DNA of 64,000 bases from Gemmatimonadaceae bacterium (GCA_035273165.1 DATEPP010000139.1:158-64157), one strand, 5' to 3'. Shown: positions 412 through 60,395, numbered from the stretch's first letter. Notes: a model not told the origin generated them from the sequence alone. Made by a program: numbers and translations.

Positions 412-443
412 TCGTTAGGCACGAGGGCGCATTTGGAGGTCCC

Positions 444-860
444 ATGAGCATTCGGAGCACACGGGAAGGAGACACGGTCACCGTGACCATCGAGGGGCAG
501 CTCGTCGCCGGCAACCGCCAGCAGCTTCGCGAGGCGGTGCTCCCCGAGATCGACCGCGGCGCGCGGCATTTCGTCATCGACTTCGCCGATACGGGCTACA
601 TCGACAGCGCCGGCCTCGGCGCACTGGTCTCGCTCTCGAAGCGGATCCGCGAGGCCGACGGCACCCTACGCCTGACGAATCTCAACGAGGACATCCGCAC
701 GCTCTTCGAGCTCACGAAGCTCGACACGCTGTTTACGCTCGGCGGCGGCGAGGGCCTGGCCGATTCCGGCGTCACCGCGAACCTCACCCCGAAGCCAAAA
801 CCGGCCGGCGGCGCCAAAGCGCCCCCGCACGACGCCGACGACGTTCGGCCCGGGGCCTAA
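444..860 (+). CDS. STAS-domain anti-sigma-factor antagonist (SpoIIAA-like)
   Basis: 138 aa. Motif FVIDFADTGYIDSAGLGALVSL is typical of STAS/SpoIIAA. The TAA stop lies inside an octamer copy (855-862). Confidence 0.8.
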   Translation: MSIRSTREGDTVTVTIEGQLVAGNRQQLREAVLPEIDRGARHFVIDFADTGYIDSAGLGALVSLSKRIREADGTLRLTNLNEDIRTLFELTKLDTLFTLGGGEGLADSGVTANLTPKPKPAGGAKAPPHDADDVRPGA

Positions 861-875
861 CGGGAGGCGACGCCG

Positions 876-1028
876 ATGATCCGGAAGCTCAAGGACGGCC
901 GCTACCGCCTCTACTCCCGCAAGAAGGACCCGAAGACGGGAAAACGGCGCAACCTGGGCACCTTCCGTACCCGCGCTGCCGCCGAGAAGCACGAGCGAGC
1001 CGTCCAGTTCTTCAAGCACGGCGGTTAG
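876..1028 (+). CDS. Small conserved basic protein (50 aa)
   Basis: Not in the ORF track (<60 aa). I translated ATG 876 to TAG 1026-1028: MIRKLKDGRYRLYSRKKDPKTGKRRNLGTFRTRAAAEKHERAVQFFKHGG. Good codon bias. From memory it resembles a widespread small-protein family. Confidence 0.5.
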   Translation: MIRKLKDGRYRLYSRKKDPKTGKRRNLGTFRTRAAAEKHERAVQFFKHGG

Positions 1029-1242
1029 GCACCGGGTACTCGCTAGGCAGACGCTGCCCCCCGCCAGTGGGGACCTAACGAGATCGCTTGTTATGCAGGA
1101 TCGCCCTTGCTCACGCTCTGAGCGCGGTTAGGTTTCCGTCGACGCGAAAAAAGTGCGTCGACGCGCGTGACCAATCAGGTGGTTGGGTGGGTCCTTTCTC
1201 GCGATAGCGCAGCAACGCGATCAACCTCAGACATCCGAACAC

Positions 1243-1494
1243 ATGCCACGCACCGCAAAAGGCCGCGGCCTAACGCCCGGCATCAGCCGCATCGATCAGC
1301 CCACCACGAGAACGCATGGGTATTTCGTGCGCGTCGGGTATCGCAAGACGACGAAGGGATGGCGGCCCAAGGCGAGCGCGTTTTTCGGTGACGCGAGCCA
1401 TGGTGGCAAGACGTCCGCGCTGCGGGCGGCGGAGCGGTGGCTCAAGCAGACGCGCCGCACCTCGACCAAGAGTCGCGGCGGCCGCGCCGCCTGA
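1243..1494 (+). CDS. Hypothetical basic protein, possibly AP2-like DNA-binding
   Basis: Internal ATG of ORF 1183..1494. The pattern GISR..THGYFVRVGY..KGWRPKASAFFGD..GGKTSALRAAERWL resembles bacterial AP2-type domains. Weak call. Confidence 0.4.
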   Translation: MPRTAKGRGLTPGISRIDQPTTRTHGYFVRVGYRKTTKGWRPKASAFFGDASHGGKTSALRAAERWLKQTRRTSTKSRGGRAA

Positions 1495-1638
1495 CGAGTG
1501 CCCCGGGCGCGTCCGCCGTTAGGCGGCGTGCCCGGTCTGTTCGGCCACCTCCTCACGGTCAGCTGTGAGGTGTGTCACACTTCGCGCCGCGGCGCGACTC
1601 TCGCATCGACCGTTACCAGTCGAGTCCACTCTCCTGGT

Positions 1639-2070
1639 ATGAAGCTCACTCGCTGGGTCGCACTCTCTGCCGCCGTCATCGTCATCAGCGGCGGATGCTC
1701 GCGTTTCCGTCACGCTGGCATCCCCGGTTTTGCCGTCAAGCCAGCCGCAAGTCGCCCTCCTTCGACCGCGACGCTCGCGTCGCAGTATGGCTGTACCGCC
1801 GAGCAGGTGGCCGCCAACTGGCAGACGGCTCGCCTCGCGATCGCACGGCCGGGAACCCCGATCTGCAGTGTCCTCGGACGCTACGGCGAGCCTCTGTCCG
1901 TGGCCAGGAACGCCGCTGCCGACATGCAACTCGTCTCGATGCTCTATCGCCAGCCGAACGGCCGATACTACAACGCGACTTTCGTCTACTACGACGACAC
2001 GAAGGTCAATCGCCAGCTCAAACGGCCAATCGGGCGCTGGATTGTGGACCGCGTGACCGCAACACGCTGA
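1639..2070 (+). CDS. Putative lipoprotein
   Basis: ATG 1639 within ORF 1498..2070. N-terminus MKLTRWVALSAAVIVISGGCS has a signal peptide and lipobox-like Cys. Confidence 0.55.
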   Translation: MKLTRWVALSAAVIVISGGCSRFRHAGIPGFAVKPAASRPPSTATLASQYGCTAEQVAANWQTARLAIARPGTPICSVLGRYGEPLSVARNAAADMQLVSMLYRQPNGRYYNATFVYYDDTKVNRQLKRPIGRWIVDRVTATR

Positions 2071-2236
2071 TCCCGCGCCTTTCCATTGGCCCCAGGACGC
2101 ATCCGGCTCGTCCCCGTGCGTCGCATCCCCTCACGAAGACGCTTGCCCCGCGCAGAACCCGGCCCTACTCTAGCACGTAGTGCCGGTACGCGTTGGCGTT
2201 CCCACCAACGTCCGCGTTTGGCGAGAGGTCCGTGCT

Positions 2237-3004
2237 ATGATGCGCCTCTGGGTCGAGTCTTATTCGAGAGCGACGCCCGTCAGTTCGAGCGCCGTGGTCA
2301 GTGTCGTTACCCACGCACTGCTCATCGGCGCCGCCGTCGCGAGCACCAGTCGGCCGGCGAACGTCGACGGCGATTGGATCGAGAATCGCGCCTACTACCT
2401 CCCGCCGCCGAACCGGATGCCGTCGCAGCAAGCGTCGGGCGAAACCATCAAGTATGTGGAGCTCGCCCCCGAGGGTGTGGGGTCTGGCTTCGGCGCCGGT
2501 GAACTGGGCTCGGATCACCCCGTCGTGCACGAGCTCTCGGAGAACCCCGGTGATCTCGGCAGGGATACAACCAGCTCCGACAAGGCACCACAGCTGGCGG
2601 GTGCGGATTCCGTCTTCACACAGCTCGAGGTCGACTCGACCGTCTCCCGCTATCCGGGTAGTGCCGCGCCCGCATATCCGGTCGAGATGCTCAAGCAGGG
2701 CGTGCAGGGCTCGGTTGTCACGCAGTACGTCGTCGACACCACTGGCTTCGCCGATACGACATCGCTCAAGATCATGAGCACGACGCACGAGCAGTTCTCC
2801 GATGCCGTGCGTGCCGCGCTGCCGTACATGCGTTTCTTCCCCGCCAAAGTCGGCGCCAAGAAAGTCCGGCAGCTCGTCGAGCAGGAGTTCAGCTTCAAGA
2901 TCGAACAGGCGGCGAGTCAGACGACGACGCCCGCAGCGCAGACGTCAGCGAAGAAGCCCGGGCTCGACAAACCGCTCCAGCCGCAGCGCAGTCCCAAAGG
3001 ATGA
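2237..3004 (+). CDS. TonB-family energy transducer (TonB C-terminal domain)
   Basis: N-terminal TM segment, Pro-rich linker, and C-terminal YPVEMLKQGVQGSVVTQYVVDTTG...FFPAKVGAKKVRQLVEQEFSF typical of TonB_C. Confidence 0.7.
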   Translation: MMRLWVESYSRATPVSSSAVVSVVTHALLIGAAVASTSRPANVDGDWIENRAYYLPPPNRMPSQQASGETIKYVELAPEGVGSGFGAGELGSDHPVVHELSENPGDLGRDTTSSDKAPQLAGADSVFTQLEVDSTVSRYPGSAAPAYPVEMLKQGVQGSVVTQYVVDTTGFADTTSLKIMSTTHEQFSDAVRAALPYMRFFPAKVGAKKVRQLVEQEFSFKIEQAASQTTTPAAQTSAKKPGLDKPLQPQRSPKG

Positions 3005-3541: not shown

Positions 3542-4303
3542 GTGCTCGGCGCGTCGCTACTGCCGTCGGTACTGTTTCTCGCGCCGATGGCCGGAGCTCA
3601 GTCGTTAGGCACCGCCCCGGGCTACCTCGACTATCTCTCGCTGCTGGGCACTCCGATCGCCAGCCTGCCTCCGCTCGCGACCTACGCGATGTTCGGTGTC
3701 GCGCAACAATCGCCGCAGTTGGTCGCGCGCTACGGGTACGTTCCCGACGTCGATCGTCCTCTCGCTCCGGCGAGTGGCGGACACGAAGCACGCAGCCTCG
3801 ACAGCTTTGGGCTCACCGGCATTGTTCCCGCCGGTCTCGACGGCACGATCACACTGACCGCGGGCCTCTCCAATGACCGATGCCGTGGATGCTCGGGCAG
3901 CGCGTTCATGGCCGCGATCGGCGGCGACCATCGCCTGACCACGATTTCCATCGATGCCGCGACCGCGACGCGTTTGACCATCGGCGTCAACGGCGAGATT
4001 GGCGTCGGTCATCCGGTCACCGGGGTGACGTGGAGCGCCGATGTCGGTGTGCCGCTCGCGCTCGCCTTGGGACCGGCGACGGGGACCTCGATCATTCCAT
4101 TCGTCACCCCCGGTTTCGCGGGGTTCGTCAGTCGCGACCCGGCGGGAAGCGGTACCTATGCGGCGGCGCGTCTCCTCGTCGGGGCCGGCGTCGCGCTCTT
4201 CAACGCGAAGAGCGCGCTCGGCGCGAGCGCCGGATTCCAATACGTCTTCGTCGACCGGACCGAGCTCCAGTTCGGCATCGCCCTCTCCCTCGGCGGCCGC
4301 TGA
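3542..4303 (+). CDS. Secreted or outer-membrane hypothetical protein (Gly/Ala-rich beta-strand pattern)
   Basis: Signal-peptide-like N-terminus (LLPSVLFLAPMAGAQS). Alternating-hydrophobicity pattern ending QFGIALSLGGR. Confidence 0.5.
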   Translation: MLGASLLPSVLFLAPMAGAQSLGTAPGYLDYLSLLGTPIASLPPLATYAMFGVAQQSPQLVARYGYVPDVDRPLAPASGGHEARSLDSFGLTGIVPAGLDGTITLTAGLSNDRCRGCSGSAFMAAIGGDHRLTTISIDAATATRLTIGVNGEIGVGHPVTGVTWSADVGVPLALALGPATGTSIIPFVTPGFAGFVSRDPAGSGTYAAARLLVGAGVALFNAKSALGASAGFQYVFVDRTELQFGIALSLGGR

Positions 4304-4334: not shown

Positions 4335-7300
4335 CTAGTGGAAATCGTGGCGCTGGGCGTACTCCGCGCCGACCTCCGCCTTGAGGCCGCGAAACTCCTC
4401 GCCGCGAATGTTGACCACGCCCTGCTCCACCTGCAGCGTTCCACGCACGAGGAGCAAGGGTGTGGTCGAGATCAATAATGCCTGTCGCTCGAATCGCTTC
4501 GGTGTCACGACGACATTCACCGTCCCCGTTTCGTCCTCGAGTGTGAGAAAGACGAATCCCTTGGCCGTGCCTGGCCGCTGCCGGCAGATCACGAGGCCGG
4601 CGCTCGCGATTCGCTCACCGTCCTTTCCGTCCGTCACGAGCTGCCGTGCGGTCCGGACGCCGTTAGGCGCGAGCAGCGGCCGCAGATGCGACATCGGATG
4701 TCCATTGAGCGAGATGCCGGTCATGCGATAGTCTGCTTCGGTCAGCTCGCCCGGCGACATCGTTGGAAGTCCGGCGGTGCGCGCCGCCGTGCCGAGGTCG
4801 CGCCGGCGGCGGGGCGCCAACGGTCCCGCGTCGCCACGCAGCGCGTCGAGCACCTCCCATAACGCCGCGCGCCGCTTGCGGAGATCCGGCTCGTCGGGCA
4901 CGAAGCCATCGAAGGCTCCCGCTTCCGCGAGCTGGCGCAGCGTCCGTTGATCGAAGCGCGTCCGCCGCGCGAAATCCTCGATCGACCCGAACGGTCCCGC
5001 CGCGAGCGCGCCCTCGACGATCTCCTTCGCCTTCGGTCCGAGCCCGCGCACCGATCGCAGGCCGAGCCGGACGGCGGGTGCTCGCGAGCCCTCTGGTTCG
5101 CGCTCGAGCGTCGCATCCCACCGCGAGTGGCGCACGTCCACCGGTCGAACCTTCACGCCATGACGCTTCGCGTCTTCGATCAACGTGCCCGGCGCGTAGA
5201 AGCCCATCGGCTGTGCATTGAGGATCGCCGCCGTGAACTCGGGCGCGTAGTAATGTTTCAGAAACGCTGATGCATAGACGAGCAACGCGAACGACGCCGC
5301 GTGCGATTCCGGAAAGCCATAGTCGGCAAATGCGTTGATCTGATTATAGATCCGAAGCGCCGTTTCCTCGGCGATGCCATTGCTCTTCATTCCGTCGATG
5401 AGCTTTGCACAAATTGCCGCCATCCGCTCGCGGCTCCGCTTGTGCCCCATCGCGCGACGGAGCGTGTCGGCCTCGCCCGCTGAGAACCCGGCGCACGCGA
5501 TCGCCACCTGCATACCCTGCTCCTGGAAGAGCGGCACGCCTAACGTACGTGCCAGGATCGGCTCCAGCGACGGATGTGGATACTCGACCTTCTCTTCGCC
5601 CGCGCGCCGCCGCAGATAGGGATGCACCATGTCGCCCTGGATTGGCCCCGGACGAATGATCGCGACCTCCACGACCAGATCGTAGAAGCACCGCGGCTTG
5701 AGTCGCGGCAGCGTGTTCATCTGCGCGCGACTCTCCACCTGGAAGACGCCAATCGTGTCGGCCCGGCACAGATCCTCGTAGACCGATTGGTCGTCCATGT
5801 CCAGCTGCGCCAGATCCACCGTGATACCGCGTGTCTGCCGCACATACAGCAGGCAATCCTGGATCAACGTCAGCATCCCCAGACCGAGCAGATCGATCTT
5901 CACCAGTCCCACCGGATCGAGATCGTCCTTCTCCCACTGAATCACCGTCCGGTCGGGCATCGACGCTGGCTCGATCGGCACCACCGTCGACAGCGGCTCG
6001 GCCGTGAGCACGAAGCCGCCGACATGGATCGACCGGTGCCGCGGTACCTGATGCAGTCCATCCACGATCTCGGCGAGCGCTCGCACCCGCTTGTCCGCCG
6101 GATCCAACCCCGCGTGCACTAGCGGTGACTGGCGGTCTTCCGCCGATGTCGAGATGGCGGTCGTCGGATTGCGACGCTCGTTATGCGTTTCCTTCGCGTA
6201 CGGATCCATGTACTCGGGCCGCGTCGGTGATTGGTGGCTGGTGGCTGGTGCCTGGTGGAACCGCCGATTCTGTTGCACCGTGTCGTGACCCGTTTCACTT
6301 CCGTAGGGCTCGTACCCGGCGTTAGGCCGCGGCCGATCCGCCGTCGTGAGATGTTTTTTCCCCTTCGGCGCCAATTTCGATCTTTCGCCGTCTCGCGTCC
6401 CGCGTCCCGCGCCCCCCATCCCGCGTGCCGCCTCTTTCACTTCCCGCGACTCCAGCGTCGCCGACGTGCCCGGCATCATCTGCTGCCCGAACGCGCGCGC
6501 GATCACCTCTTCCGCTGACTCATCGCCCTCCTCTCCGGCTGCGCCTAACGAGCCGCCGCGCAGCGCTTCAGCCGTCGCGCGCGCCGAGAACCGGTCACTC
6601 AGCATCGACAGTCGGTCCGCCTGCTCGACGGAAAATCCCAGCACGCGCGCGGCGTCCCGTACCGCCGAGCGGCCCCGGTAGGTGATCTGCTCGCAGACCA
6701 TCGCCGCGTGCTCGCGCCCGTACTTCTCGTAGACGTACTGGATCACCCGCTCGCGCTCACGATGCGCGAAATCGATGTCGATGTCCGGCGCCTCGCGCCG
6801 CTCCTCACTCAGGAACCGCTCGAAGAGCAGTCCGAGACGAATGGGATCCACCGCCGTGATGCCAAGGCAATAGCAGACCGCGGAGTTCGCCGCCGATCCA
6901 CGACCCTGACAGAGAATCCCCTCGCGGCGCGCGAAGCGCACGATGTCCCACACGATGAGGAAGTATCCCGCCAGCCCGAGCCGGCGAATCATTCCCAGCT
7001 CGTGTTCGACCTGCCGGCGATGCGCTTCCGTCGGAAAGACATCCTCGCCTCCGTCGCGCTGCTCCGCTCCCCAGCGTTCCTGTGCCCCCTGGATCACCAG
7101 CCGCTCGAGATACTCGTCGGCGGTCACCTTCGGCGGCAGCGGAAAGGCCGGCAGCGCTGGCTCCAGCTGTTCCATTCGAAAGGCACAGCGTTCGGCGATC
7201 GCCCGCGTCGCGATGATTCCCTCCGGTGCGTGCTGCCAGCGCCGTCGCATCTGCGCCGCGCTCTTGAGATACCACTCACCGTTAGGCCGGAGCCGCGTCC

Positions 7301-10517: not shown

Positions 10518-10589
10518 CGGAGTTTGGTCGGGAATCACTCCCGCGACCGCCGAGACTGCCGCGACGCGAAGGGGCGAATAAGCTATCCC

Positions 10590-10604
10590 GAACAAAAACC
10601 GAAA
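10590..10604. promoter_or_regulatory. Candidate LexA (SOS) box, GAAC-N7-GAAA
   Basis: gaacaaaaaccgaaa lies in the imuA/yggL divergent region and resembles the alphaproteobacterial GTTC-N7-GTTC direct-repeat box. The LexA motif of this lineage is unknown to me. Confidence 0.2.
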
Positions 10605-15468: not shown

Positions 15469-15491
15469 CGTGGTCCGCCGTTAGGCCGCGC

Positions 15492-16184: not shown

Positions 16185-16258
16185 GGCGAGCTTTAACTCC
16201 GTTGGAGAATTCGACGAGAATATATACCCAGCACCGAGACGAAAGAGCCGGAGCTTCG

Positions 16259-17137: not shown

Positions 17138-17231
17138 GACTCCCTCTCGTCGTGACGCCAGAAAGATCTCACACAAAGGGCGCGTCCCGCCATACGGCGA
17201 GACGCGCCCCCGGGATTCCTGACAACTGCCG

Positions 17232-19865: not shown

Positions 19866-19876
19866 TGTCGTATCGA

Positions 19877-51734: not shown

Positions 51735-54700
51735 GCCGAGAGCCAGGTGAGAAGCGGCGCCAACTCCTCGTGACTGACACCATACGCGTCAAGCGTACCG
51801 TCGAGCAGTGCGTCGCGAAGCTCGCCGTCCGCGAGGGCTCCGCGCATGGCGGCGGTGGCAATGGGCGCGAGGATCGAACGGGCGCGAAGCCAATCCTGAG
51901 GCAACGGAAGGAGCGCCATCGTCCAGCCAAGAAAGCGTCGATAGCCTCCACGCGCCGGCTCGGCGAGAGCGCCGAGCCAGGCTTCAGCGATTGGTGAGTT
52001 CAGGATTGCCGCGAGCGTCCGGGCGTCGTCCTCGTCGGCACAAATGGCGACGTAGCAGCTATTGAGCGGCACCGTTGGATCGCCTGCGTCGAGAATGGTG
52101 GCGCGTGGCGCTCGGCCGAGATCGGCCCAGACAACACGTGGGTGGTCCGTGCGCGCGGCATCCGTGCGGAAGAGAGACCACCAACGGCCAGTGCGGCTGT
52201 CGGCTCGCGCGGCGAGCTGACGACGCCAGGGGTTGAGCCAGCGCGAGGCGCCGGAGGGAAGTCGCTCCATGGGCAGGCCGCGGACGTCGTGTGTCCAGAC
52301 GATATTCTCGTCACCGCCGTCCATGCACCAGGATCGGATGCCTTCGCCGCGGACGACGGGTCTGAGCAGTGCGGTTTCGACGCGCCCCCGCCGGCCATTG
52401 GCGGCGACCACGTCGATGGCGTCGCTCGCTGCGACGGAGGCGCGCCTAACGAGGAAGGCGAGATTGAATCCCGTCTTGACGCCGAGCCGCGGCCGGCCGA
52501 TCGAGCTCTCGGCAAACGGAACGCCGACCGCCCGTAACCGGTCGAAAGCCTGACGGACGTCCGGGGGAAGAATCAGCCATGGACTGCCGGGCGAGTCGTC
52601 AAACGCGAGCTGGCGTCGCGGTAGTCGCCAGCGGAGCGACCCGCAGCCACGATGATATACCGCGGCGAGGATTTCGCCGGGATGATCGTTCGTCGGGCCA
52701 TTCCAGCGCTCGGCAACGATGAGCGACGGATAGACCGCGGCATCGAATGTCGATGGCGCCTCGGCGAGATCCTCGAGCACGGCGACGCGCGTCTCCTCGG
52801 CGAGGAGTCGCCTAACGCCGCCGCCGGCGAGCGCGCGCCAGAGTTTGGCCGGCACGAGAAAGCTCAGCACGGCGCCGGGGCGCAGCAACCGGACGCCACG
52901 CTCGATGAAGAGCGCGGCGAGATCGACCTGCCCGGCGAATCCTGAACCGGCGTGGGCCTGCTCCGCGCCGATCTCCCACCCGCCAGCGCGAAAGACTCGA
53001 TACCGCTCGCGAAGGACTACTCGCTCGCGCGGCGGAATGCGATGGAGACGGACCCATGGCGGATTGCCGAGAACGACGTCGAACCCACCGCGGGCGAGGA
53101 CGTCGGCGAAGTGGACAAGGAAGGAAAAAGGGAGCGCGCCACCACTCGCGAGTCGTCGTCGCTCCAAGCGCAGAGCGGCCGCGCGAGCGCGGAGCGTGCG
53201 CGTGTGCAGTCGTGCGTCGCCTGACGAGTGGTTCCGGTCGCCAAAGAGATCTCGCGACCGGAGCGCTACGAGGATGTCGCGACGCTGAGCGGCAATGCTC
53301 GTGAGCTCGAGATCGATGGTGTCGATCGCGAGTCGCCGCTCCTCACGATCGAGGAGCCTGACGAGCGTCTCCTTGCGGCGGCCGCTGGCGCGCGCGTACC
53401 GCTCGCGGAGTCGCCTCAGCATACCGGCACGAGAGGGTAGCGCGGAGCGATCGGTGCCGACATCGGCGGCGAGTGAATCGCCGACGCGAATGTTGTGGTC
53501 AAGATTGGGCAGAGGCTCGACCCGGCGCGGATCAGACACCTCGGACTCGATGACGACGGACAGCCAGAGGCGGAGCTCGCATAGCCACACCGCCGTCGGA
53601 TTTCTGTCGATGCCGAAGATCGATCGCGTCAACACGTCGCGGCGGACGTCGGCGACGGGACGATCGTCGCCGGAGGCACGGCGCAGTGTTGCGAGCTCCT
53701 CGAGCGCGTACACGAGAAAGGCGCCCGATCCGCACGCAGGATCGAGGACCGTGATCTCTTCGAGACGTTGCCGCCGCGCCTGGCGAACGATCTCCGTCGC
53801 GTTGGCGAGACTGCTGGAGACGCATGTATTCGGTGACAGCGCGAGGACGCGTCCGAGCGCGGCATCAGTAGCGTGCGCAACCAGAGCATGGGGCGTGTAG
53901 AACGACCCGCTGCCCTTTCGATCAGCGGTCGCCATCAACGACTCGAACGCCTTGCCGAGCATCTCGGGATCCACCGCCAGCTCGGCCCAATCGGTTCCTT
54001 CCTCGCGCGCGGTGAATCGGTAGCGGGCGAAGAGATCACCGAAGAGCCGGCCGATCTCGTCATCGGGGAAGTGAACACCGCGCAGGCGTCGCTCGTTAGG
54101 CGTGCGCGCGAAAAGGCCGCCATTGAGAAATGGAATTCGGCCGAGCGCGCGCGCGGCGGGGGCGCGACGGGCGTGTCGCGTGTTGAGCGTGCCGAAAAAG
54201 AGAGGGAGGAGCACGCGTCGATGGAACCCGCCGCCCGAAGTCATACAGGCGTCGAAAGTACGGCTGAGGAAAGCGCGGTCGTCGTCGAGCCATCCTTTCG
54301 CCTCGAGGAAGCAGAGGAAGAGCAAGCGAGAGCTGTACAGCAGCGCGAGCTCGCGGCGTTCCTCCTGCGTGCCGCGGTCGAGCGCGCTGGCGAGGGATTG
54401 AACACGGGTCTCGAGCGAACGATAGAACCGGCGGCTGAGCGCCTCGCGTCCGAGGATCTCGACCCAGCGCTGGTGTGTCAGGACATCGGCATCCGCGCGC
54501 GGATCGGCGACGGCAGCAAGGGTGGCGAGGGTTTCGGCGTCGCTATCGACGACGCGGTCGCGTTGCGCGACGAGCGCGGCAACGCGGGGCGGCCGGCGGT
54601 CTACGCTCCAGGCTGCGATGGCGACGGACGAAGAAGCTGGTTGCGTGGCGAGGACGATCCAGAGCACGTGCGGCGTGTGCTGCGCGAGTCGATGCGCTGC

Positions 54701-54961
54701 CCGACGCATCTGGTCGGCGAGCGATGTGCGTTCATCGAGCTCGAGGAGGAGAGCGCGGAGGGCCCCCGGTCCCTCGATTATGCGCGCCTGCTTCGCCGAG
54801 TCGAGACCGATCTCGCACAGGAGCGAGTCATCGAGCGGCAACGGATGCGCCGCGCAGCCAATCGCGACCGCGATCGGCGTGAGGCTCTCGATGGTGGCAG
54901 CATCGGCGAGGAGTCGCGCCGCGGCGCGCAGCGTACGCACGCGGGCACGATGCTGCCGCAC
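51731..54961 (-). CDS. PglX/Eco57I-like (type IIG-like, gamma-class) N6-adenine DNA methyltransferase, no recognisable nuclease domain
   Basis: SAM motif VLDPACGSGAFL, catalytic GNPPWV. Upstream conserved FLEAKGWL / IPFLNGGLF / FYTPHALV blocks are typical of COG1002/BREX PglX-type enzymes. 4-nt overlap with the helicase gene. Confidence 0.85.
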   Translation of the reverse strand: MRQHRARVRTLRAAARLLADAATIESLTPIAVAIGCAAHPLPLDDSLLCEIGLDSAKQARIIEGPGALRALLLELDERTSLADQMRRAAHRLAQHTPHVLWIVLATQPASSSVAIAAWSVDRRPPRVAALVAQRDRVVDSDAETLATLAAVADPRADADVLTHQRWVEILGREALSRRFYRSLETRVQSLASALDRGTQEERRELALLYSSRLLFLCFLEAKGWLDDDRAFLSRTFDACMTSGGGFHRRVLLPLFFGTLNTRHARRAPAARALGRIPFLNGGLFARTPNERRLRGVHFPDDEIGRLFGDLFARYRFTAREEGTDWAELAVDPEMLGKAFESLMATADRKGSGSFYTPHALVAHATDAALGRVLALSPNTCVSSSLANATEIVRQARRQRLEEITVLDPACGSGAFLVYALEELATLRRASGDDRPVADVRRDVLTRSIFGIDRNPTAVWLCELRLWLSVVIESEVSDPRRVEPLPNLDHNIRVGDSLAADVGTDRSALPSRAGMLRRLRERYARASGRRKETLVRLLDREERRLAIDTIDLELTSIAAQRRDILVALRSRDLFGDRNHSSGDARLHTRTLRARAAALRLERRRLASGGALPFSFLVHFADVLARGGFDVVLGNPPWVRLHRIPPRERVVLRERYRVFRAGGWEIGAEQAHAGSGFAGQVDLAALFIERGVRLLRPGAVLSFLVPAKLWRALAGGGVRRLLAEETRVAVLEDLAEAPSTFDAAVYPSLIVAERWNGPTNDHPGEILAAVYHRGCGSLRWRLPRRQLAFDDSPGSPWLILPPDVRQAFDRLRAVGVPFAESSIGRPRLGVKTGFNLAFLVRRASVAASDAIDVVAANGRRGRVETALLRPVVRGEGIRSWCMDGGDENIVWTHDVRGLPMERLPSGASRWLNPWRRQLAARADSRTGRWWSLFRTDAARTDHPRVVWADLGRAPRATILDAGDPTVPLNSCYVAICADEDDARTLAAILNSPIAEAWLGALAEPARGGYRRFLGWTMALLPLPQDWLRARSILAPIATAAMRGALADGELRDALLDGTLDAYGVSHEELAPLLTWLSA

Positions 54962-55067
54962 GTGGCGGCGACCGGGACCGCGTCGTTGCGAGCCGCGCCG
55001 GAATTACGCCGGATGATTCGGATGCACGCGGATGGCCGACAGCTCCTGGCTGGAGCTCCCGACGCGC

Positions 55068-56225
55068 CTAACGAGACAGATACTCGCGACCTTTCCATCC
55101 GACACGACGCCCGCGGGCGATGGCTCGCGCGATAATGTAAAGGAGCATCGCCGCGCCGAGTGGGGCGGCGAGCGCGTACCAGATCCGTTGACGGAAGCCG
55201 CGGTAGATCAGCGCCCACCAGACGAGGTTCGCCACGGCACTGACCTCGGACCAGACTAGCCACCGGTCCCCCAGGAGTCCGCCGAGCGCCAGCGGCAGAG
55301 CGATCACGGGCGCCAGCGCCATCAGCGGCGCGAGTGGGAGAACGAATGGGAACAAAGCCCGACCCACGCTCCCACCGGGCATCGCGTCGACCCCGCCGGC
55401 GAAGATGTTCTTTCCCCAGCCGGCGATCAGCTCCGCCAGCGTCGCGTACATGTGCGTCGAGAGCTGCGCGTCACCGCGTACGAGTCGCACCCCAAGGCTG
55501 GCGCGGTGGAATCGCTGGGCGAGCGCAAGATCCTCGGCCACCTTGTCGCGCACCGCGGCATGACCGCCGACGGACTCGTACGCTGCGCGACGAACGAGCA
55601 GGAACTGTCCGTTGGCGATGACGTCCTCGGCGCGACGCGCGTTGCTGACGCTCTCCGTGCCGCCGTATCGCGCGAGGAGCATCCAGAAGACCTGAGGCTG
55701 CAGCAGCCGTTCCCAGAAGCTGTGGGTCTCCTGCCGGCCCGCGACGGTGAGCAACGCCACATCGCTGCGCAGCAGGGCATTCACCGCGCGCGACAGTAGG
55801 TCCGGTGCGTGCACCGTGTCGGCGTCGGTGAACAGCAGCAGCTGGCCAGCGGCGACCGCGACGCCGGTCGCGCACGCCCACTGCTTGCCAAACCAGCCGT
55901 TAGGCAGCGGCGGGTTCGGCACGACCCGAAGCCGCGCGTCACCGGCCGCTGCGTCTCGCGCAATGGCTGCGGTGTCGTCGCGCGAGTGGTCGTCGACCAC
56001 GATCAGCTCCAGTGAGGGATAGCGACTGGCGAGGATCGAGCGAACGCACCGGCCGATGTTCCGTGCCTCGTCGCGCGCCGGTACGATGACCGACACCAGC
56101 GGCGCGGGCGACGGCGGGGTGTCGGATTCGTCATCGAGCGACCGCGAGCGACGAACACGCAGCATCGCCAACGGAGGAAACAAGACCCACGGCGCGGTAG
56201 CACCCAGCGCCCATGCGAGCGACAT
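55068..56225 (-). CDS. Family 2 glycosyltransferase (membrane-associated)
   Basis: VSVIVPARDE...LIVVDDHSRDDT...FTDADT motifs with C-terminal TM helices. The TAG stop lies inside an octamer copy. Confidence 0.8.
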   Translation of the reverse strand: MSLAWALGATAPWVLFPPLAMLRVRRSRSLDDESDTPPSPAPLVSVIVPARDEARNIGRCVRSILASRYPSLELIVVDDHSRDDTAAIARDAAAGDARLRVVPNPPLPNGWFGKQWACATGVAVAAGQLLLFTDADTVHAPDLLSRAVNALLRSDVALLTVAGRQETHSFWERLLQPQVFWMLLARYGGTESVSNARRAEDVIANGQFLLVRRAAYESVGGHAAVRDKVAEDLALAQRFHRASLGVRLVRGDAQLSTHMYATLAELIAGWGKNIFAGGVDAMPGGSVGRALFPFVLPLAPLMALAPVIALPLALGGLLGDRWLVWSEVSAVANLVWWALIYRGFRQRIWYALAAPLGAAMLLYIIARAIARGRRVGWKGREYLSR

Positions 56226-57463
56226 CAGTCGCGCCGGCGCTCCGCGATGACGGCCGCCGCCATCTGACCCGTGACGTTCGCCGTCGTCCGAAAGGCGTCG
56301 GGAATCGTGTCGACGCCGAGGAGGACGCCGATCCCCTCGGTTGGCAGCCCGATGCTCGCGAGCACGGGTACCATGGCGATGATGGATCCACCGGGAATGC
56401 CCGGAATGCTGAAGCTGGTGAGCACCGCCGTCGCGGCCGCGGTGAGTACCTGCGCACTCGTTAGGGCGATCCCGTAGAGGCGGGCGATGAACACCGCGCC
56501 CACCGTGAGCCCCATCGCGGCGCCGACGCGAAAGAGCGCCGAGGCGAGCGGTAGGAGGAACCCACTCGACTCGGCGGTCATGCCGAGCCGCCGCTGCGCA
56601 CCCTCGATGAGCGCGGGTAGAGCAGCAAGCGACGTGCGCGAGGAGAAAGCCACTGCTTGCGCGGGAAAGACCGCGCGTGCGAAGCGTTCGATCGGCACGT
56701 GGCCGAAGATCGCTGCCGCGGGATAGAGGACGAGAAGCGCGAATACCGTCGTGGCGATGGCGATGAGCGCGACATACGCTGCGAGTGCGCCGATGGCGAC
56801 GGCGCCAAGCCGGGCGACGAGTGGCAGCGTGAGCGCAAAGACGCCTAACGGCGCGAGGACGAGCACCCAGCGCACGAGACGGAGCATCGCCTCGCCGACA
56901 CCGCGGAAGAACCGGACGACCGGCTCACGCTGCTCGGCGTCGATCGAGAGGAGCGCCAGCCCGAAGAAGACGGCGAATACGATGAGGGGGAGCATGGCTC
57001 CGTCGGCGGCCGCACGAATCGGATTGGCGGGTATGAGATCGGTGAGCCACCGCCCGAAACCGCCGGTCGTCTGGGCGGCGCCATTGGCGAGCGTTCCCGC
57101 CGCACGCGCTCGCAACGCCGCGATCGCCACCGGATCGATGTCGAGACGGGAGAACGCGATCGGAGCGAGAATAGCGCCGACACAACCCGAGAGACAGAGA
57201 AAGAGGAACGCGACAACGAGCGCGCGCGTGCCCATTCGAGCGACGCGAGTCCCATCAGCAGTCGCGATGCCGACGACGACCAGCGACACGACCAGTGGGA
57301 TCACCGTCATCCGAATCGCGTTGACGAAGATCGTGCCGAGCGGCTCGACGTACGCTACGACACGCTCGCTCGTTGCCGTGTTCGCGCGGCTGAGCAGGAG
57401 ACCGAAACCCAGACCGGCGAGGAGCGCGAGTAGGACGCGCGTACTGAGCGAGAGGCGCGACAC
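56225..57463 (-). CDS. Dicarboxylate/amino acid:cation symporter (DAACS/GltP family)
   Basis: 412 aa. Hairpin-loop motifs SSRTSLAALP and IPGIPGGSIIAM. Confidence 0.85.
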   Translation of the reverse strand: MSRLSLSTRVLLALLAGLGFGLLLSRANTATSERVVAYVEPLGTIFVNAIRMTVIPLVVSLVVVGIATADGTRVARMGTRALVVAFLFLCLSGCVGAILAPIAFSRLDIDPVAIAALRARAAGTLANGAAQTTGGFGRWLTDLIPANPIRAAADGAMLPLIVFAVFFGLALLSIDAEQREPVVRFFRGVGEAMLRLVRWVLVLAPLGVFALTLPLVARLGAVAIGALAAYVALIAIATTVFALLVLYPAAAIFGHVPIERFARAVFPAQAVAFSSRTSLAALPALIEGAQRRLGMTAESSGFLLPLASALFRVGAAMGLTVGAVFIARLYGIALTSAQVLTAAATAVLTSFSIPGIPGGSIIAMVPVLASIGLPTEGIGVLLGVDTIPDAFRTTANVTGQMAAAVIAERRRD

Positions 57464-57557: not shown

Positions 57558-58250
57558 TTAGTGAGACGAGCTGCTCGATCCGCCCGAGCCGCTGGAACCG
57601 CGCGAGCCACTCGAACCACCGCTCGACCCACCGGAGCCCGACGAGCCGGAGGAGCCGCTCGAGCCACCCATACCACCGGACGATCCACTCGATCCGCTCG
57701 AGCCACCCATCCCGCCGCTGGATCCACTCGAGCCCTTCTGCCCACTCTGCCCGCTCTGCCCGCTCTGCCCACTCTGCCCACTCTGGCCGCTCTGGCCGCT
57801 CTGACCACTCTGGCCGGAGCTCGAGCCGGATTTCGATGAGCCGGAGGAACCGGACGAGCCGGACGAGCCGCTGGCGCCGAAGCCGGAGGAGCCGCTTCCG
57901 CTCGACGAGCCGCTGCCTGAGGAGCCATAGCTGCCCGACGAGCCGCTGCCACTGCGACCACTCGTCTGACTGCTGCCGAGCTCCGGATCCGTCATGTCAC
58001 CGTCGCCCTGACGGCCCCGGGTCGCCGAGCTGCCGATGCCCTCGTCACCCTGATTGCCGCGATCCGTGCGGCTCTGCGAGCTGCTGCTGCTGCTGCCCGA
58101 CTGCTGCCCGAAGCCGCCACTCGAACCGCTCGAGCCTGCATTGCGTCCCGAGGTGCCGCTTCCGCTGCTGCCGGACATCGAGTCACTATCAGAACTGCCT
58201 GACGAGCCACTCGAGCCACTCTTGTTGAGATCGTCCTTGCGGTCAGCCAT
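57558..58250 (-). CDS. Ser/Gly-rich intrinsically disordered protein
   Basis: ATG 58250 lies 9 nt downstream of GGAGG. The 230 aa are almost entirely S/G with an (SGQ)n block. Coding status rests on the RBS and ORF length only. Confidence 0.5.
   Translation of the reverse strand: MADRKDDLNKSGSSGSSGSSDSDSMSGSSGSGTSGRNAGSSGSSGGFGQQSGSSSSSSQSRTDRGNQGDEGIGSSATRGRQGDGDMTDPELGSSQTSGRSGSGSSGSYGSSGSGSSSGSGSSGFGASGSSGSSGSSGSSKSGSSSGQSGQSGQSGQSGQSGQSGQSGQSGQKGSSGSSGGMGGSSGSSGSSGGMGGSSGSSGSSGSGGSSGGSSGSRGSSGSGGSSSSSH
57738..57815. repeat. 9-bp tandem repeat (CTGSCCRCT)x8.7 encoding (SGQ)n
   Basis: Direct reading: ctgcccact ctgcccgct ctgcccgct ctgcccact ctgcccact ctggccgct ctggccgct ctgaccact ctggcc. 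Confidence 0.9.
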
Positions 58251-58458
58251 CGTTTGCATCCTCCGAGTGTGATGATCCGCGGCGCAACCATTCTTCAGGC
58301 GCCGCGCCCGCGTATGGATGAGCAGGTACGGTGCCACCTACCGTACTTTCTCGCGAGTTGACCGTGCTCGACCGGCGGTCTACGTTGCGTCGCGTGACGC
58401 GAGCACGACCATTATCTGGAGCAGCGCGGCACCAGCGCGCGCGTGCCGGCCTCGGCTG

Positions 58459-59358
58459 ATGCGTCGCCCTGTGATTCGCGCCGATGCGCGCGTCGCACTC
58501 GTTGCGCCGGCGGGACCACTCGATGGTGAGAAAGATCTCGAGCGAGCGAAAGAAAATGTGCGCTCACTCGGGTGGGTGCCGGTGGTCGGCGCGAACGTGC
58601 TGGCGCGCGTTGGCTATCTCGCTGGCGATGATGGCGCGCGGCTCGCCGATCTGAACAACGCGCTCGTCGACGACGCGATCGATGCCGTCTGGTGCATTCG
58701 CGGCGGATTCGGGGTGATGCGCATTCTCGAAACCATCGATTACGCCGCGCTGCGCCGGCGCCCGAAACCGGTCATCGGGTATTCGGACATCACGGCGCTG
58801 CACGCTGCGATCTCGACGCGCTGCGACACCATCACGTTCCATGGACCGACGGCGCGCGCGAAGTTGAGTGTCTTCTCACGGGAGTCGCTCTGGCGAGCGC
58901 TCGCTGCCGGCGACCCGGCGGGACCGGCGGAGCAGGCGCGCACGCTCGTGCCGGGCCGGGCACGGGGACGCGTCGTCGGTGGCAATCTCGCGATTCTCTG
59001 CGGGCTCGCCGGAACTCCGTACGCGCCGGACTATCGAGACGCCATTCTGGTTGTGGAAGACGTGAACGAAGCAGTGTATCGCATCGACCGGATGCTCACG
59101 CAGCTCCGCCTGAGCGGAGCGCTCGCTGCATGCGCGGGGATCATCTTTGGACAATTCACGGACATTCCGCGCGACACGCCCGAAGAGGCGCTCGGGGCGC
59201 GGACCCTCGATGATGTGCTCGGTGAGACCGCGAGCGCACTCGGCGTGCCTTGCATCGCGGGCGCGCCGGTGGGCCATGTCGCCGATCAGTGGACGCTTCC
59301 ACTCGGCGCCCAGGCCGAGCTCGACGCGGATACGCGAGCGCTGCGTATCTTGGAGTGA
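58459..59358 (+). CDS. ldcA: LD-carboxypeptidase (peptidase S66, LdcA-like)
   Basis: Nucleophile motif IGYSDITALH. N-terminal VALVAPAGP. C-terminal GHV. Confidence 0.8.
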   Translation: MRRPVIRADARVALVAPAGPLDGEKDLERAKENVRSLGWVPVVGANVLARVGYLAGDDGARLADLNNALVDDAIDAVWCIRGGFGVMRILETIDYAALRRRPKPVIGYSDITALHAAISTRCDTITFHGPTARAKLSVFSRESLWRALAAGDPAGPAEQARTLVPGRARGRVVGGNLAILCGLAGTPYAPDYRDAILVVEDVNEAVYRIDRMLTQLRLSGALAACAGIIFGQFTDIPRDTPEEALGARTLDDVLGETASALGVPCIAGAPVGHVADQWTLPLGAQAELDADTRALRILE

Positions 59359-59375
59359 CCCTCACGCACGACAGA

Positions 59376-59741
59376 ATGCCCTCGTACAAGACCGGACAAC
59401 AGCTGCTCGACGAAGCGCGCGCGCGCGTCACGGAGATTTCGGCGCGCGAAGCGATCGCGTTGCGCGCCGCCAAGCCGGACGTGGTATTTCTCGACATTCG
59501 CGAGCAGCCGGAAGTGAACCTCGGAATGATTCCTGGCGCCGTGCATCTCGCCCGCGGATCGATGGAGACGAAGATCGAAGCGCTGGTGCCGCGCGAGAAG
59601 CAAGTCGTGATCTACTGCGCCAATGGCAATCGCTCGGCGTTCGCCGCTGATACCCTCCAGCAGATGGGGTATGCCGACGTCGCCTCTCTCGCTGGCGGGT
59701 TCCGCGACTGGGTGGCGCTCGGCGGAGAGGTCGCTGGTTGA
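59376..59741 (+). CDS. Rhodanese-domain sulfurtransferase
   Basis: Active-site loop YCANGNRS. FLDIREQPE and GGFRDW motifs. Confidence 0.8.
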   Translation: MPSYKTGQQLLDEARARVTEISAREAIALRAAKPDVVFLDIREQPEVNLGMIPGAVHLARGSMETKIEALVPREKQVVIYCANGNRSAFAADTLQQMGYADVASLAGGFRDWVALGGEVAG

Positions 59742-59768
59742 GCGTTTGCTGAATCGACGGGCTGGCCG

Positions 59769-60395
59769 ATGACGACGATCGACGCTCTGCTCGAGCTTCC
59801 CGATGTCCGGCGCCTGCAGGCCGCGCTCGCCGCGCGCCCGGGCATCGCCATCGATGCGAGCGATGGGCTCCGTCGGCTCGCGGCAATCGCGCTCGTGCTG
59901 CGGCCCGGCACGGGGCCGGCCGAGTCCGCGGATCCTGAGCTGCTGATGATCAAGCGGGCCGAGGCGGAAGGTGATCCGTGGAGTGGTCACATCGCCTGCC
60001 CGGGTGGGCGAATGGAGCCGGGCGACCACGATCTCGAGCAGACGGCGGTCCGCGAGACGTGGGAGGAGACGGGAGTCGACCTCGCGCGCGATGGCAAGGT
60101 GCTCGGCGCGCTGGACGACATCAGCCCGCGCACGCCGACGTTGCCGCCCATCATCGTTAGGCCCTACGTCGCCGTCGTGAAGCCCGAGCTCGAGATCGTG
60201 CAGAGCTCCGAGGTGGCGGAGGCGTTCTGGGTGCCGCTCGCGGCGCTCCGGGAGCGAGCGGCATGGGGCACGGCGATGGTGCCGGTCCGCGGCTCAGGAG
60301 AGCGGCAGGTCGAGGCGTTTCGCCACGGCGCGTACACCGTATGGGGACTGACGGAGCGCGTGCTCCGTCAGTTCCTCTTATACCTGGACGGCTGA
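59769..60395 (+). CDS. NUDIX hydrolase (CoA pyrophosphatase-like)
   Basis: Nudix box GGRMEPGDHDLEQTAVRETWEETGV, preceded by LLMIKRA. Confidence 0.75.
   Translation: MTTIDALLELPDVRRLQAALAARPGIAIDASDGLRRLAAIALVLRPGTGPAESADPELLMIKRAEAEGDPWSGHIACPGGRMEPGDHDLEQTAVRETWEETGVDLARDGKVLGALDDISPRTPTLPPIIVRPYVAVVKPELEIVQSSEVAEAFWVPLAALRERAAWGTAMVPVRGSGERQVEAFRHGAYTVWGLTERVLRQFLLYLDG

Follow-up and report, generated by a model that had tools for sequence, protein, structure and literature searches.

Why should a single exact 8-base word, CGTTAGGC/GCCTAACG, recur throughout a stretch of Gemmatimonadaceae DNA in which hardly any copies are expected by chance? In the window (the whole 64,000-nucleotide stretch analysed), the 39 copies reported in the initial annotation were all recovered where it had placed them, 18 on the plus and 21 on the minus strand. 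This corresponds to ~1 copy per 1.6 kb, both strands considered, compared to a chance expectation of ~1–1.5 copies. Dinucleotide-preserving shuffles of the window yielded 1.03 copies on average and never more than 4. An order-3 Markov model of the window predicted 1.5 copies (Poisson p ~1e-40), and by this measure no other 8-mer of the window came near the word in over-representation. The G+C content was 65.8%, below the 68–70% estimated initially. When synonymous codons were resampled with the window's own usage (300 runs), coding sequences (CDSs) contained 0.84 ± 0.94 copies, at most 4, compared to 30 observed; the excess was upheld against both the Markov and the codon-aware background.

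Thirty of the 39 copies fell wholly within gene calls, in line with the initial claim that the majority are coding, if not with its exact count of 31. These 30 read as TTA-Leu (9), CCT-AAC (11), GTT-AGG (5) and CTA-Leu (5), matching the initial codon tallies except for CTA, which had been given as 6. A further three copies (855, 33264, 55066) provide the stop codon of a gene. The copies, with one dense and one copy-free region, are located as follows.

413–420, plus: intergenic, 1 nt past the stop of a DinB_2 gene (7–411)
855–862, minus: its TAA (858–860) is the stop codon of a STAS gene (444–860)
1268–1275, minus: intergenic
1517–1524, plus: intergenic; within the loop and upper stem of a strong GC hairpin (z = –2.4)
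3603–3610, plus: CDS 3542–4303 (plus), TCG TTA GGC, S-L-G
4335–10595, minus: imuA-imuB-dnaE2 mutasome cassette, where density peaks locally (10 copies over 6.3 kb)
4661–4668, plus: dnaE2 (minus), GCG CCT AAC GGC, A-P-N-G
5538–5545, minus: dnaE2 (minus), ACG TTA GGC, T-L-G of conserved RTLGVP
6320–6327, plus: dnaE2 (minus), CGG CCT AAC GCC, R-P-N-A
6543–6550, minus: dnaE2 (minus), TCG TTA GGC, S-L-G
7280–7287, plus: dnaE2 (minus), CGG CCT AAC GGT, R-P-N-G of conserved LRPNGE
8183–8190, plus: imuB (minus), CGC CTA ACG, R-L-T
8404–8411, minus: imuB (minus), GTC GTT AGG CCG, V-V-R-P
8762–8769, plus: imuB (minus), CGC CTA ACG, R-L-T
9668–9675, plus: imuB (minus), CGC CTA ACG, R-L-T
10098–10105, plus: imuA (minus), CGC CTA ACG, R-L-T
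10997–11004, minus: YggL-like CDS (plus), CCG CCT AAC GTG, P-P-N-V
12696–12703, minus: PMT-like glycosyltransferase CDS (plus), A-P-N-E
13533–13540, minus: PMT-like glycosyltransferase CDS (plus), V-P-N-D
15479–15486, plus: intergenic, 5 nt downstream of the Bax1-I gene stop; L084 has a copy at about the same place
15487–27557, no strand: copy-free stretch of 12.1 kb, 0 of 19 synonymously permissive sites occupied
27558–27565, plus: intergenic, between convergent genes; adjoins a (GCTGGTG)n heptamer array
28779–28786, minus: amine-oxidase-like CDS (minus), P-V-R-R
29287–29294, minus: amine-oxidase-like CDS (minus), P-L-G-V (TTA)
33264–33271, minus: its TAA (33267–33269) is the stop codon of a Zn-ADH gene (31983–33269)
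35224–35231, minus: PPIase CDS (plus), T-P-N-D
36704–36711, plus: amino-acid permease CDS (plus), S-L-G-G (TTA)
38205–38212, minus: intergenic, 7 nt off the stops of two convergent genes
40648–40655, minus: sdhA CDS (plus), L-P-N-A
42650–42657, plus: CDS 42343–42843 (plus), S-L-G-A (TTA)
43697–43704, minus: CDS 42908–43882 (minus), S-L-G-A (TTA)
44019–44026, plus: mscL-like CDS (minus), R-L-T-L (CTA)
48340–48347, minus: Ser/Thr kinase CDS (plus), M-P-N-V
49683–49690, minus: SNF2 helicase CDS (minus), P-L-G-A (TTA)
52444–52451, minus: type IIG-like methyltransferase CDS (minus), L-V-R-R (AGG)
52810–52817, minus: type IIG-like methyltransferase CDS (minus), G-V-R-R (AGG)
54094–54101, plus: type IIG-like methyltransferase CDS (minus), T-P-N-E
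55066–55073, minus: its TAG is the stop codon of a GT2 gene (55068–56225, minus)
55898–55905, plus: GT2 CDS (minus), L-P-N-G
56843–56850, minus: SDF symporter CDS (minus), P-L-G-V (TTA)
60155–60162, plus: NUDIX CDS (plus), I-V-R-P (AGG)

In the window, T preceded the word in 19 of 39 copies, the same count as obtained initially, and G followed it in 25 of 39. Apart from these preferences at –1 and +1, no conserved flank was found over 214 unique word contexts (≤0.2 bit per flanking position), and the information was limited to the 8 positions. Spacing was close to random (gap CV of 1.07 over the pooled loci and of 1.28 in the window with its 12-kb gap), with no sign of quasi-periodicity. Intergenic DNA carried 1.54 copies/kb compared to 0.52 copies/kb in CDSs (p = 0.008). 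Within CDSs the word favours the cheapest reading frames: 11 of 19 permissive sites were occupied in the xPN frame, compared to 10–17% in the other frames. Inverted pairs were absent, as no two copies in the window were closer than 221 bp. Of the 19 copies within 1–20 kb, none lay in a predicted terminator, and a strong hairpin surrounded only copy 1517. The copy-free stretch does not differ from the remainder of the window in G+C or GC3, and relatives share synteny over at least its 15.5–22 kb portion; it is therefore no obvious island.

The word is not a palindrome. Pooled copies in word-bearing loci were oriented 132:121, and over 18 loci the fraction in the major orientation was 0.607, compared to 0.616 expected without polarity. 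A polarity of 0.65 was rejected at P = 0.008 and one of 0.75 at P < 0.0002, and the word had neither strand nor replichore polarity. The majority orientation shifts weakly at the sign change of GC skew at ~24 kb (11:8 to the left, 7:13 to the right).

The densest region is the mutasome cassette. Its polymerase gene, initially called DnaE, does encode a polymerase, specifically the error-prone DnaE2 (NF004225, 1268 bits); it is adjoined by an ImuB-like Y-family gene and a RecA-fold gene, the latter read as imuA from the positions of the cassette genes. Word density was 1.6/kb in the cassette and 0.5/kb elsewhere in the window, and 1.19/kb compared to 0.71/kb in relatives; permissive sites were occupied at 10 of 22 inside and 20 of 133 outside. 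The 1.7–3.2-fold excess over the surroundings comes from one cassette only and could be explained by low expression, since weakly expressed SOS genes may tolerate rare codons.

Comparison with relatives, for which we took loci reaching 10 kb to each side of chosen genes, separated bearing from non-bearing lineages. Word-bearing relatives contained 253 copies in 337 kb compared to 2.95 expected (86-fold), whereas non-bearing sister lineages of Gemmatimonadota contained 4 copies in 883 kb compared to 1.9 expected. Over-representation in the window and relatives ranged over 26–86-fold, and in neither was the observed-to-expected ratio near 1. All loci of three DnaE2 clades carry the word, as do the relatives' sdhA and methyltransferase neighbourhoods. 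Presence is all-or-none per clade on the DnaE2 tree, on which the bearing clades are not monophyletic and their distribution is patchy. As judged from these loci, the word is found only in certain Gemmatimonadaceae clades.

The orthologues also bear on what is being conserved. At the RTLGVP of DnaE2, bearing lineages all use ACG-TTA-GGC, whereas non-bearing ones use CTN codons, mostly CTC (ACG-CTC-GGC); across RTLGVP, LRPNGE and xPNG, bearing genomes have TTA or CCT where non-bearing ones have CTC or CCC/CCG. In L107 the word falls in the conserved GCPRGW, which there reads GSPNGW, and the S-L-G of copy 6543 is S-S-G where the word is lacking. Copy 4661 is retained in all close relatives covering the site except L150 and L158 (CGTTCGGC/T), and copy 6320 has been gained or lost among relatives of 86–94%. 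Word sites were conserved 2–4 times more often than control 8-mers (80–90% compared to 39%, 68% to 18%, 35–40% to 11%) and at 0 of 79 sites in non-bearing lineages. Orthologous states differ by substitutions, not insertions, and near-cognate words are enriched in bearing lineages only (CGTTAGGT 19.5-fold, CGTTATGC 9-fold, CGTTAGGG 8.6-fold). Comparative data of this kind strongly support the view that it is the DNA word itself, not any peptide, that is maintained, even at the price of rare codons, and the orthologues and the codon-aware null agree here with the initial annotation, which had proposed selection on the word. As the alignments show, the word arises and persists by point substitution wherever local sequence allows: at codons that can change synonymously or conservatively, at the ends of genes and between genes, whichever the strand.

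The closest known systems are the DUS of Neisseriaceae (core GCCGTCTGAA) and the USS of Pasteurellaceae (core AAGTGCGGT). Like them, the word is exact, short and asymmetric, occurs at ~1 per kb in equal orientations, lies within genes, preferably in cheap frames, and more densely between them, is common to related species, is accompanied by a halo of one-off variants and builds up through substitution. An excess in genome-maintenance genes may be a further likeness, seen here in one cassette whose low expression could explain it. Genome-maintenance and reading-frame biases are present in DUS/USS, according to a preprint (bioRxiv 10.1101/2025.10.24.684340). In other respects the systems differ. 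The word has 8 bp and almost no flank signal, whereas DUS/USS have 10–12 bp, or 9 bp and AT-rich flanks. About half of DUS/USS copies sit in terminators, whereas the word forms no inverted pairs and has no terminator location. Its hosts are uncultured soil lineages of the phylum Gemmatimonadota, it is patchy across clades where DUS and USS are family-wide, and its likeness to them is one of sequence pattern. The initial preference for DUS/USS over Chi/KOPS held for density, non-polarity, frames, intergenic excess and the near-cognate halo, but not for inverted pairs and terminators, extended flanks or the distribution on the DnaE2 tree. HIP1 of cyanobacteria (GCGATCGC) is a second hyper-abundant octamer (15–300-fold, compared to 26–86-fold here), similarly conserved at orthologous coding and non-coding sites, spread by substitution without indels and polyphyletic. 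It differs in being a quasi-periodically spaced palindrome with known methylase targets, whereas the word is asymmetric, close to randomly spaced and has no identified methylase. The function of HIP1, long unknown, is now linked to transformation, which it was reported to enhance (bioRxiv 10.64898/2026.06.24.733823). We tentatively favor reading CGTTAGGC as a 'self' word specific to its lineage and akin to DUS, USS and HIP1, an uptake-sequence-like tag that has spread by substitution.

Other explanations fit parts of these data. Chi (GCTGGTGG in E. coli), KOPS and SRS are likewise asymmetric 8-bp words that occur in excess throughout genomes and are recognised by DNA-processing machinery, and a Chi-like stop for RecBCD/AddAB or a KOPS/SRS-like guide for FtsK/SpoIIIE would agree with the size of the word, its enrichment in DNA-repair genes and the weak change of orientation across the skew switch near 24 kb. 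These signals are strongly co-oriented with replication and few-fold enriched, whereas the word is balanced both in the window (18:21) and in the pooled loci, polarity of 0.65 being rejected, and its 86-fold excess at 1 per 0.7–2 kb is far above the enrichment of known Chi or KOPS. A polar role is highly improbable, and lack of orientation polarity across the 18 loci largely refutes it. We practically dismiss a remnant of a MITE/REP-like element or a by-product of repeated peptide or codon usage. High copy number, intergenic copies and one copy in a hairpin might suggest such an origin, but information confined to 8 positions in 214 unique contexts and orthologues related by substitution refute it. 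Four reading frames, stop codons and non-coding DNA contain the word, and the codon-aware expectation is 0.84.

Two further possibilities, both of which we judge unlikely, involve a protein acting on the word. A DNA methyltransferase, or an enzyme making some other modification, may have the word as its target; the abundance of the word would then come from a methylation-dependent repair ratchet, or from a defence or recombination system that uses the modified word as a self mark, as proposed for HIP1 and its methylases. The word has adenines on both strands, HIP1 abundance is tied to cognate methylases and a repair ratchet, and the only methyltransferase in the window is a large type IIG-like adenine enzyme encoded beside an SNF2 helicase. 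The recognition modules of these enzymes are readily moved and altered, a behaviour that would agree with the patchy distribution. But this gene pair is syntenic in five bearing and five non-bearing lineages and the methyltransferase diverges uniformly along its length, with no swap of a target-recognition region, so the enzyme does not suffice for the word, nor do the two visibly go together. Moreover, restriction-linked targets are normally avoided, not accumulated, whereas the word is 26–86-fold over-represented, and its one-off variants are enriched rather than depleted, which a conversion ratchet would not predict. The word might instead be a site on the resident chromosome for a lineage-specific DNA-binding protein (organisation, repair targeting or silencing), each copy under weak purifying selection with no part in DNA exchange. 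Conservation well above control 8-mers, sharp specificity with graded tolerance at few positions and all-or-none presence per clade, expected if a single protein determines the word, are all consistent with such a site. Near-random spacing (CV 1.07 pooled) and the 12-kb gap, however, leave no regular array; density depends on how much change the local sequence tolerates (at gene ends, in the cheapest frames, in genes under low constraint) and not on position; and the ~2,000–3,000 sites per genome obtained by extrapolation from the present densities would make selection per site very weak. An asymmetric 8-mer equal on both strands is also unusual, known nucleoid or segregation sites being palindromic or polar.

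Under the favored uptake-tag explanation, some protein of the bearing clades would recognise the 8-mer while tolerating changes at positions 4, 6 and 8 to differing degrees, and its binding would be coupled to DNA exchange, in its likeliest form by preferential uptake or integration of word-bearing DNA in natural transformation. Recombination would over-transmit the alleles that carry the word (molecular drive), raising it to a mutation-drive equilibrium of ~0.5–1.5 copies per kb. The window contained no competence or pilus genes, and its syntenic 12-kb stretch without a copy likewise speaks against this explanation. The literature searched yielded neither documentation of natural competence in Gemmatimonadota, nor a published description of CGTTAGGC, nor a hyper-abundant word of this signature in the phylum. 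Such a tag would possibly be the first for sequence-specific uptake or self-recognition outside Proteobacteria and cyanobacterial HIP1, with a determinant gained and lost, perhaps transferred, between Gemmatimonadaceae clades, which would account for the identical 8-mer in three separate DnaE2 clades. If true, there would be sequence-biased natural transformation in a phylum without described competence, and the tag would operate in uncultured soil Gemmatimonadaceae.

Some clades of Gemmatimonadaceae, unlike their sister clades, carry an asymmetric octamer, CGTTAGGC (reverse complement GCCTAACG), that arises and is maintained at the DNA level on either strand, wherever it is tolerated. A pattern search of the window returned all 39 exact copies of this word reported in the initial annotation, 18 on the forward and 21 on the reverse strand, each at the position it had been assigned. 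In 100 dinucleotide-preserving shuffles of the window (65.8% G+C), the mean was 1.03 copies and the maximum 4, and an order-3 Markov model predicted 1.5 copies (Poisson p ~1e-40). The word was by far the most over-represented 8-mer of the window, the runners-up being its own overlapping shifts, and one-mismatch variants did not reach a comparable abundance. Flank preferences in the window were limited to T at –1 (19/39 copies) and G at +1 (25/39).

Genes were called by codon usage, the model having been trained on the window itself (~88–91% coding; 58,138 of 64,000 bases once three genes had been added manually). With gene positions re-called, the earlier counts of copies by context held, with errors of one copy at most.

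Context of the word in the window
xCG-TTA-GGC (x-Leu-Gly): 9 copies
xxG-CCT-AAC-G (Pro-Asn): 11 copies
xGC-CTA-ACG (Leu-Thr): 5 copies
xxC-GTT-AGG-C (Val-Arg): 5 copies
Wholly or partly outside CDSs: 9 copies

The sense strand of the coding copies read CGTTAGGC 14 times and GCCTAACG 16 times, so the word is unbiased relative to transcription. Three of the nine non-coding copies supply the stop codon of a gene (start coordinates 855, 33264 and 55066), and another three lie ≤10 nt from one (413, 15479 and 38205). When each codon was redrawn from the window's own synonymous usage, CDSs held 0.84 ± 0.94 copies (maximum 4 in 300 runs) compared to the 30 observed. The excess thus stood against both the Markov and the codon-aware background, earlier suggested as a check and run here on the window. 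Purely synonymous recoding could make the word at 155 sites in the window CDSs, 30 of which are occupied; occupancy peaks in the Pro-Asn frame (11/19), where a single rare codon is needed. Copies were denser in intergenic DNA of the window than in its CDSs (1.54/kb vs 0.52/kb, p = 0.008). The use of four coding frames plus stops and intergenic DNA, together with the codon-aware null, rules out a peptide or codon effect and strongly supports the initial proposal that it is the DNA word, and not a protein motif, that is maintained. Whatever its function, the word measurably skews codon usage (9 of the 31 TTA codons in the window, 29%, lie inside it) and now and then alters protein sequence.

Relatives were compared at two loci, the neighbourhood of SdhA in GTDB species genomes and that of DnaE2 in metagenomes (fetched loci, numbered L). 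By its SdhA relatives the window belongs to the family Gemmatimonadaceae of the Gemmatimonadota, and a public ENA metagenome assembly includes a 13-kb contig 99.7% identical to it. The word was the top 8-mer, at 0.6–1.8 copies/kb, in every locus whose DnaE2 was at least ~87% identical to the window's (a cut corresponding to ≥83% in tblastn identities), and also the top 8-mer in the SdhA locus of the Gemmatimonadaceae MAG SMAG_U7800. It was frequent in a distant group as well (L107, L105, L108–L110, L121 and L125; DnaE2 ~68–71% identical) and in L100; as a frequent word it was absent from the remaining lineages among the fetched SdhA and DnaE2 loci. Pooled non-redundant bearing loci (337 kb) contained 253 copies compared to 2.95 expected with the word masked from the background, an 86-fold excess, and non-bearing Gemmatimonadota loci (883 kb) contained 4 compared to 1.9 expected. 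Information outside the eight positions was ≤0.2 bit over 214 unique contexts. Neither a ratio near one nor longer conserved flanks, which the initial annotation had named as counter-evidence, was therefore seen.

A codon alignment of DnaE2 made the DNA-level nature of the word explicit. The invariant RTLGVP was encoded with ACG-TTA-GGC in 13/13 bearing and ACG-CTC-GGC in 4/4 non-bearing sequences, and LRPNGE and xPNG used CCT in bearing genomes and CCC or CCG in the others. In variable DnaE2 regions the word accompanies residue changes (S-L-G vs S-S-G), and in L107 it sits where the otherwise conserved GCPRGW reads GSPNGW. Site conservation was scored in blastn alignments of the window with its relatives, all 8-mers in the same alignments serving as controls.

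Conservation of word sites compared to control 8-mers
Relatives at ~86% DNA identity: word sites intact 80–90%; control 8-mers identical 39%
Relatives at ~77% DNA identity: word sites intact 68%; control 8-mers identical 18%
Distant bearing lineages: word sites intact 35–40%; control 8-mers identical 11%
Non-bearing lineages: word sites intact 0/79; control 8-mers identical 12%

The proposed check in orthologues, that the word and not the codons should be conserved, was thus borne out, with codons switching with bearing status and sites kept above controls. Between relatives, sites differed by substitutions, mostly of the central TTA to common G+C-rich codons, and no indels were found at word sites among these differences. 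Sites intact above controls and substitution-only differences indicate that the word was gained by substitution and held against mutation, with slow turnover. The same substitutions, never indels, and the confinement of information to eight positions exclude remnants of a mobile element.

A neighbour-joining tree built from 608 aligned C-terminal positions of DnaE2 split the bearing loci into three groups, namely the clade of the window, the group of L107, and L100, with many non-bearing clades between them; each clade was all-or-none. The L107 protein has an 88% identical homologue labelled Gemmatimonadaceae at NCBI. This patchy pattern may reflect a word present in the ancestor and lost several times, a recognition determinant gained more than once, or horizontal movement of the dnaE2 cassette itself. 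Separately, L016 and L019 (Gemmatimonadota MAGs RBC101 and BIN3) had the word at a low but significant density (4 copies in L016 and 3 in L019, each in 22 kb, compared to ≤0.1 expected), with CGTCAGGC in 3.5–5-fold excess; there the word may be decaying or newly arising, or a variant of it may be in use.

Pooled copies were oriented 132:121, and the major-orientation fraction across 18 loci was 0.607, compared to 0.616 expected without polarity; a polarity of 0.65 was rejected at P = 0.008 and one of 0.75 at P < 0.0002. GC skew of the window turns from negative to positive at ~24 kb (about 22000–26000), with the cumulative minimum there, and gene orientation explains this only in part. Replication may change direction at this switch; no dnaA or dnaN genes were seen among the annotated ORFs, which are those up to 23.5 kb and beyond 27.3 kb. 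Orientation in the window did not differ significantly across it (11:8 vs 7:13). Strong replichore polarity, the other counter-indication named at the outset, was therefore not found, and Chi- or KOPS-type roles are rejected. Gaps between copies had a CV of 1.07 in pooled loci and 1.28 in the window, gap analysis of both revealed no periodic spacing, and the closest two copies in the window are 221 bp apart, all of which argues against HIP1-like quasi-periodic spacing (HIP1 being the cyanobacterial octamer) and inverted pairs like those of the Neisseriaceae uptake sequence (DUS). Predicted terminators overlapped 0/19 copies in window 1–20 kb, and a strong hairpin holds copy 1517 only.

Near-cognates were enriched in bearing lineages only: CGTTAGGT 19.5-fold, CGTTATGC 9.1-fold and CGTTAGGG 8.6-fold, and more weakly CGCTAGGC (5.5-fold) and CGTCAGGC (3.6-fold), compared to ~1-fold in non-bearing lineages. 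Variants with G changed to A at position 2, 6 or 7 showed no significant enrichment. This halo looks like graded recognition, tolerant at positions 4, 6 and 8, plus mutational decay. A conversion or repair ratchet would deplete neighbouring words, which are enriched instead. Other apparently hyper-abundant words in relatives, considered as dialects, proved to be arrays, tandem or clustered, with periods of 7, 14 or 24 nt and not dispersed. Two local arrays had at first been taken for dispersed words: L052 12658–15202 (Vicinamibacterales MAG), a 24-nt periodic repeat of conserved GGATCGCACCGAC and ~11 variable bases in opposed blocks, and L020 12662–12914 (Acidobacteria MAG), a 14-nt tandem array with a CCTTGATC core. 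The window itself has a dense tandem-repeat nest without a called gene at 57560–57950 (periods 9, 18, 27, 39 and 57 nt), probably a repetitive proline- and glutamate-rich ORF (reverse strand, 57558–58337). Rfam and tRNA scans of the window gave no matches.

The word is locally densest in one cassette. The gene initially annotated as DnaE does encode a polymerase, of the error-prone type DnaE2 (NF004225, 1268 bits), and has two genes upstream of it, one ImuB-like of the Y family and one with a RecA fold. We read the latter, from its position, as imuA and the locus (4335–10595, reverse strand) as an imuA-imuB-dnaE2 mutasome cassette. It contains 10 copies in 6.3 kb (1.6/kb vs 0.5/kb elsewhere in the window, p = 0.004), and cassettes of relatives were likewise richer (1.19/kb vs 0.71/kb, p = 0.001). 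Permissive sites were filled at 10/22 in the cassette vs 20/133 elsewhere (Fisher p = 0.002). Low expression of these genes could account for this excess. Separately, 7-nt tandem arrays (2–6 units, 16 in L097) recur inside or just upstream of mutasome cassettes.

7-nt tandem arrays in the window
6232–6258, in dnaE2
6389–6431, in dnaE2
7738–7810, in dnaE2
9911–10005, in imuA
27573–27690, intergenic

Such arrays were also present in L105, L109, L110, L121, L125, L143 and L097. The unit is lineage-specific, reused at each place and mostly in a single orientation: (AGGCCAG)n at 8 places in L110, (CCCCATG)n at 6 in L109, (ACGATTC)n at 6 in L121, and in the window (GCTGGTG)n, which includes the E. 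coli Chi octamer, and (CGTCCCG)n. Since seven is no multiple of three, a single unit more or less would put the gene out of frame; the arrays may encode repeats of a linker peptide or serve as slippage-prone mutasome switches.

At the other extreme, a 12-kb stretch (15487–27557) is copy-free, with 0/19 synonymously permissive sites occupied, a gap barely beyond chance (P ~0.01). Among its products are Bax1-I, a HAD hydrolase, a YkuD transpeptidase, four DUF4097 paralogues and a pair of ECF sigma and anti-sigma factors. It is not evidently a horizontally acquired island, because its G+C and GC3 do not differ from those elsewhere in the window and distant relatives share synteny over at least 15.5–22 kb of it.

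A modification-linked word is a less likely reading. The window does encode a 1069-aa Eco57I/MmeI-type (type IIG-like) adenine methyltransferase adjoining a 739-aa SNF2 helicase (49515–54940, reverse strand). Across the Gemmatimonadaceae lineages compared (L162–L172), the pair keeps its syntenic place, in the order SDF symporter, GT2, methyltransferase, helicase ... sdh, both in five bearing lineages (63–100% identity) and in five non-bearing ones (55–57%). Methyltransferase homologues are of constant length and form a smooth identity ladder, and divergence is uniform along the protein, with none specific to a domain. These observations lend no support to a link with the word; one through a gradual change of specificity is conceivable. 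Because the slot is shared by ten lineages and divergence is uniform, the pair is a stable chromosomal one and not a mobile island; such stable synteny is unusual for a defence-type module. Where the flank was recovered, the helicase of bearing L162–L165 is followed by a Ser/Thr kinase and a 270–290-aa protein without Pfam matches; non-bearing lineages have an aldo/keto reductase in that position (absent in L171), in a small sample confounded by phylogeny.

The word thus combines lack of polarity, a density of ~1 per kb, substitutional change, frame bias, and excesses in intergenic DNA and in one cassette of maintenance genes with a near-cognate halo. To our knowledge, molecular drive from biased uptake and recombination, as for DUS and the Pasteurellaceae USS, is the sole well-established process giving this combination. 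Sequence-biased DNA uptake followed by recombination would exert such a drive, under which the word would accumulate. For this reason, and because HIP1, the other hyper-abundant octamer, is now being tied to transformation (bioRxiv 10.64898/2026.06.24.733823), we tentatively take an uptake-type self tag to be the most likely mechanism, inferring recognition and a link to DNA exchange. That the word is instead a binding site acting in situ is a less likely reading, on a par with the modification-linked one. The word resembles DUS and USS in being non-polar, at ~1 per kb, with frame bias and intergenic excess. Inverted pairs and a location in terminators were looked for and not found here, and we therefore do not assign the word to the DUS/USS family, whose defining feature is biased uptake.

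Full-text literature searches turned up neither a description of the word nor any account of natural competence or uptake sequences in Gemmatimonadota. The word adds a further phylum to those with hyper-abundant genomic words; it differs from HIP1 in its asymmetry and its lack of quasi-periodic spacing, and from DUS and USS in being shorter and flank-less. We know of only two proteobacterial families in which sequence-specific uptake signals are firmly established, HIP1 being a recent candidate. Since close clades exist with and without the word, a putative recognition protein could be sought by comparison. If the uptake-type reading is true, this would be a third, unrelated word with the population-genetic signature of an uptake signal, in an abundant and poorly studied soil phylum; as a simple k-mer marker it would help to bin these lineages and to spot foreign DNA in them, and it would suggest that self-biased DNA exchange is commoner than believed.
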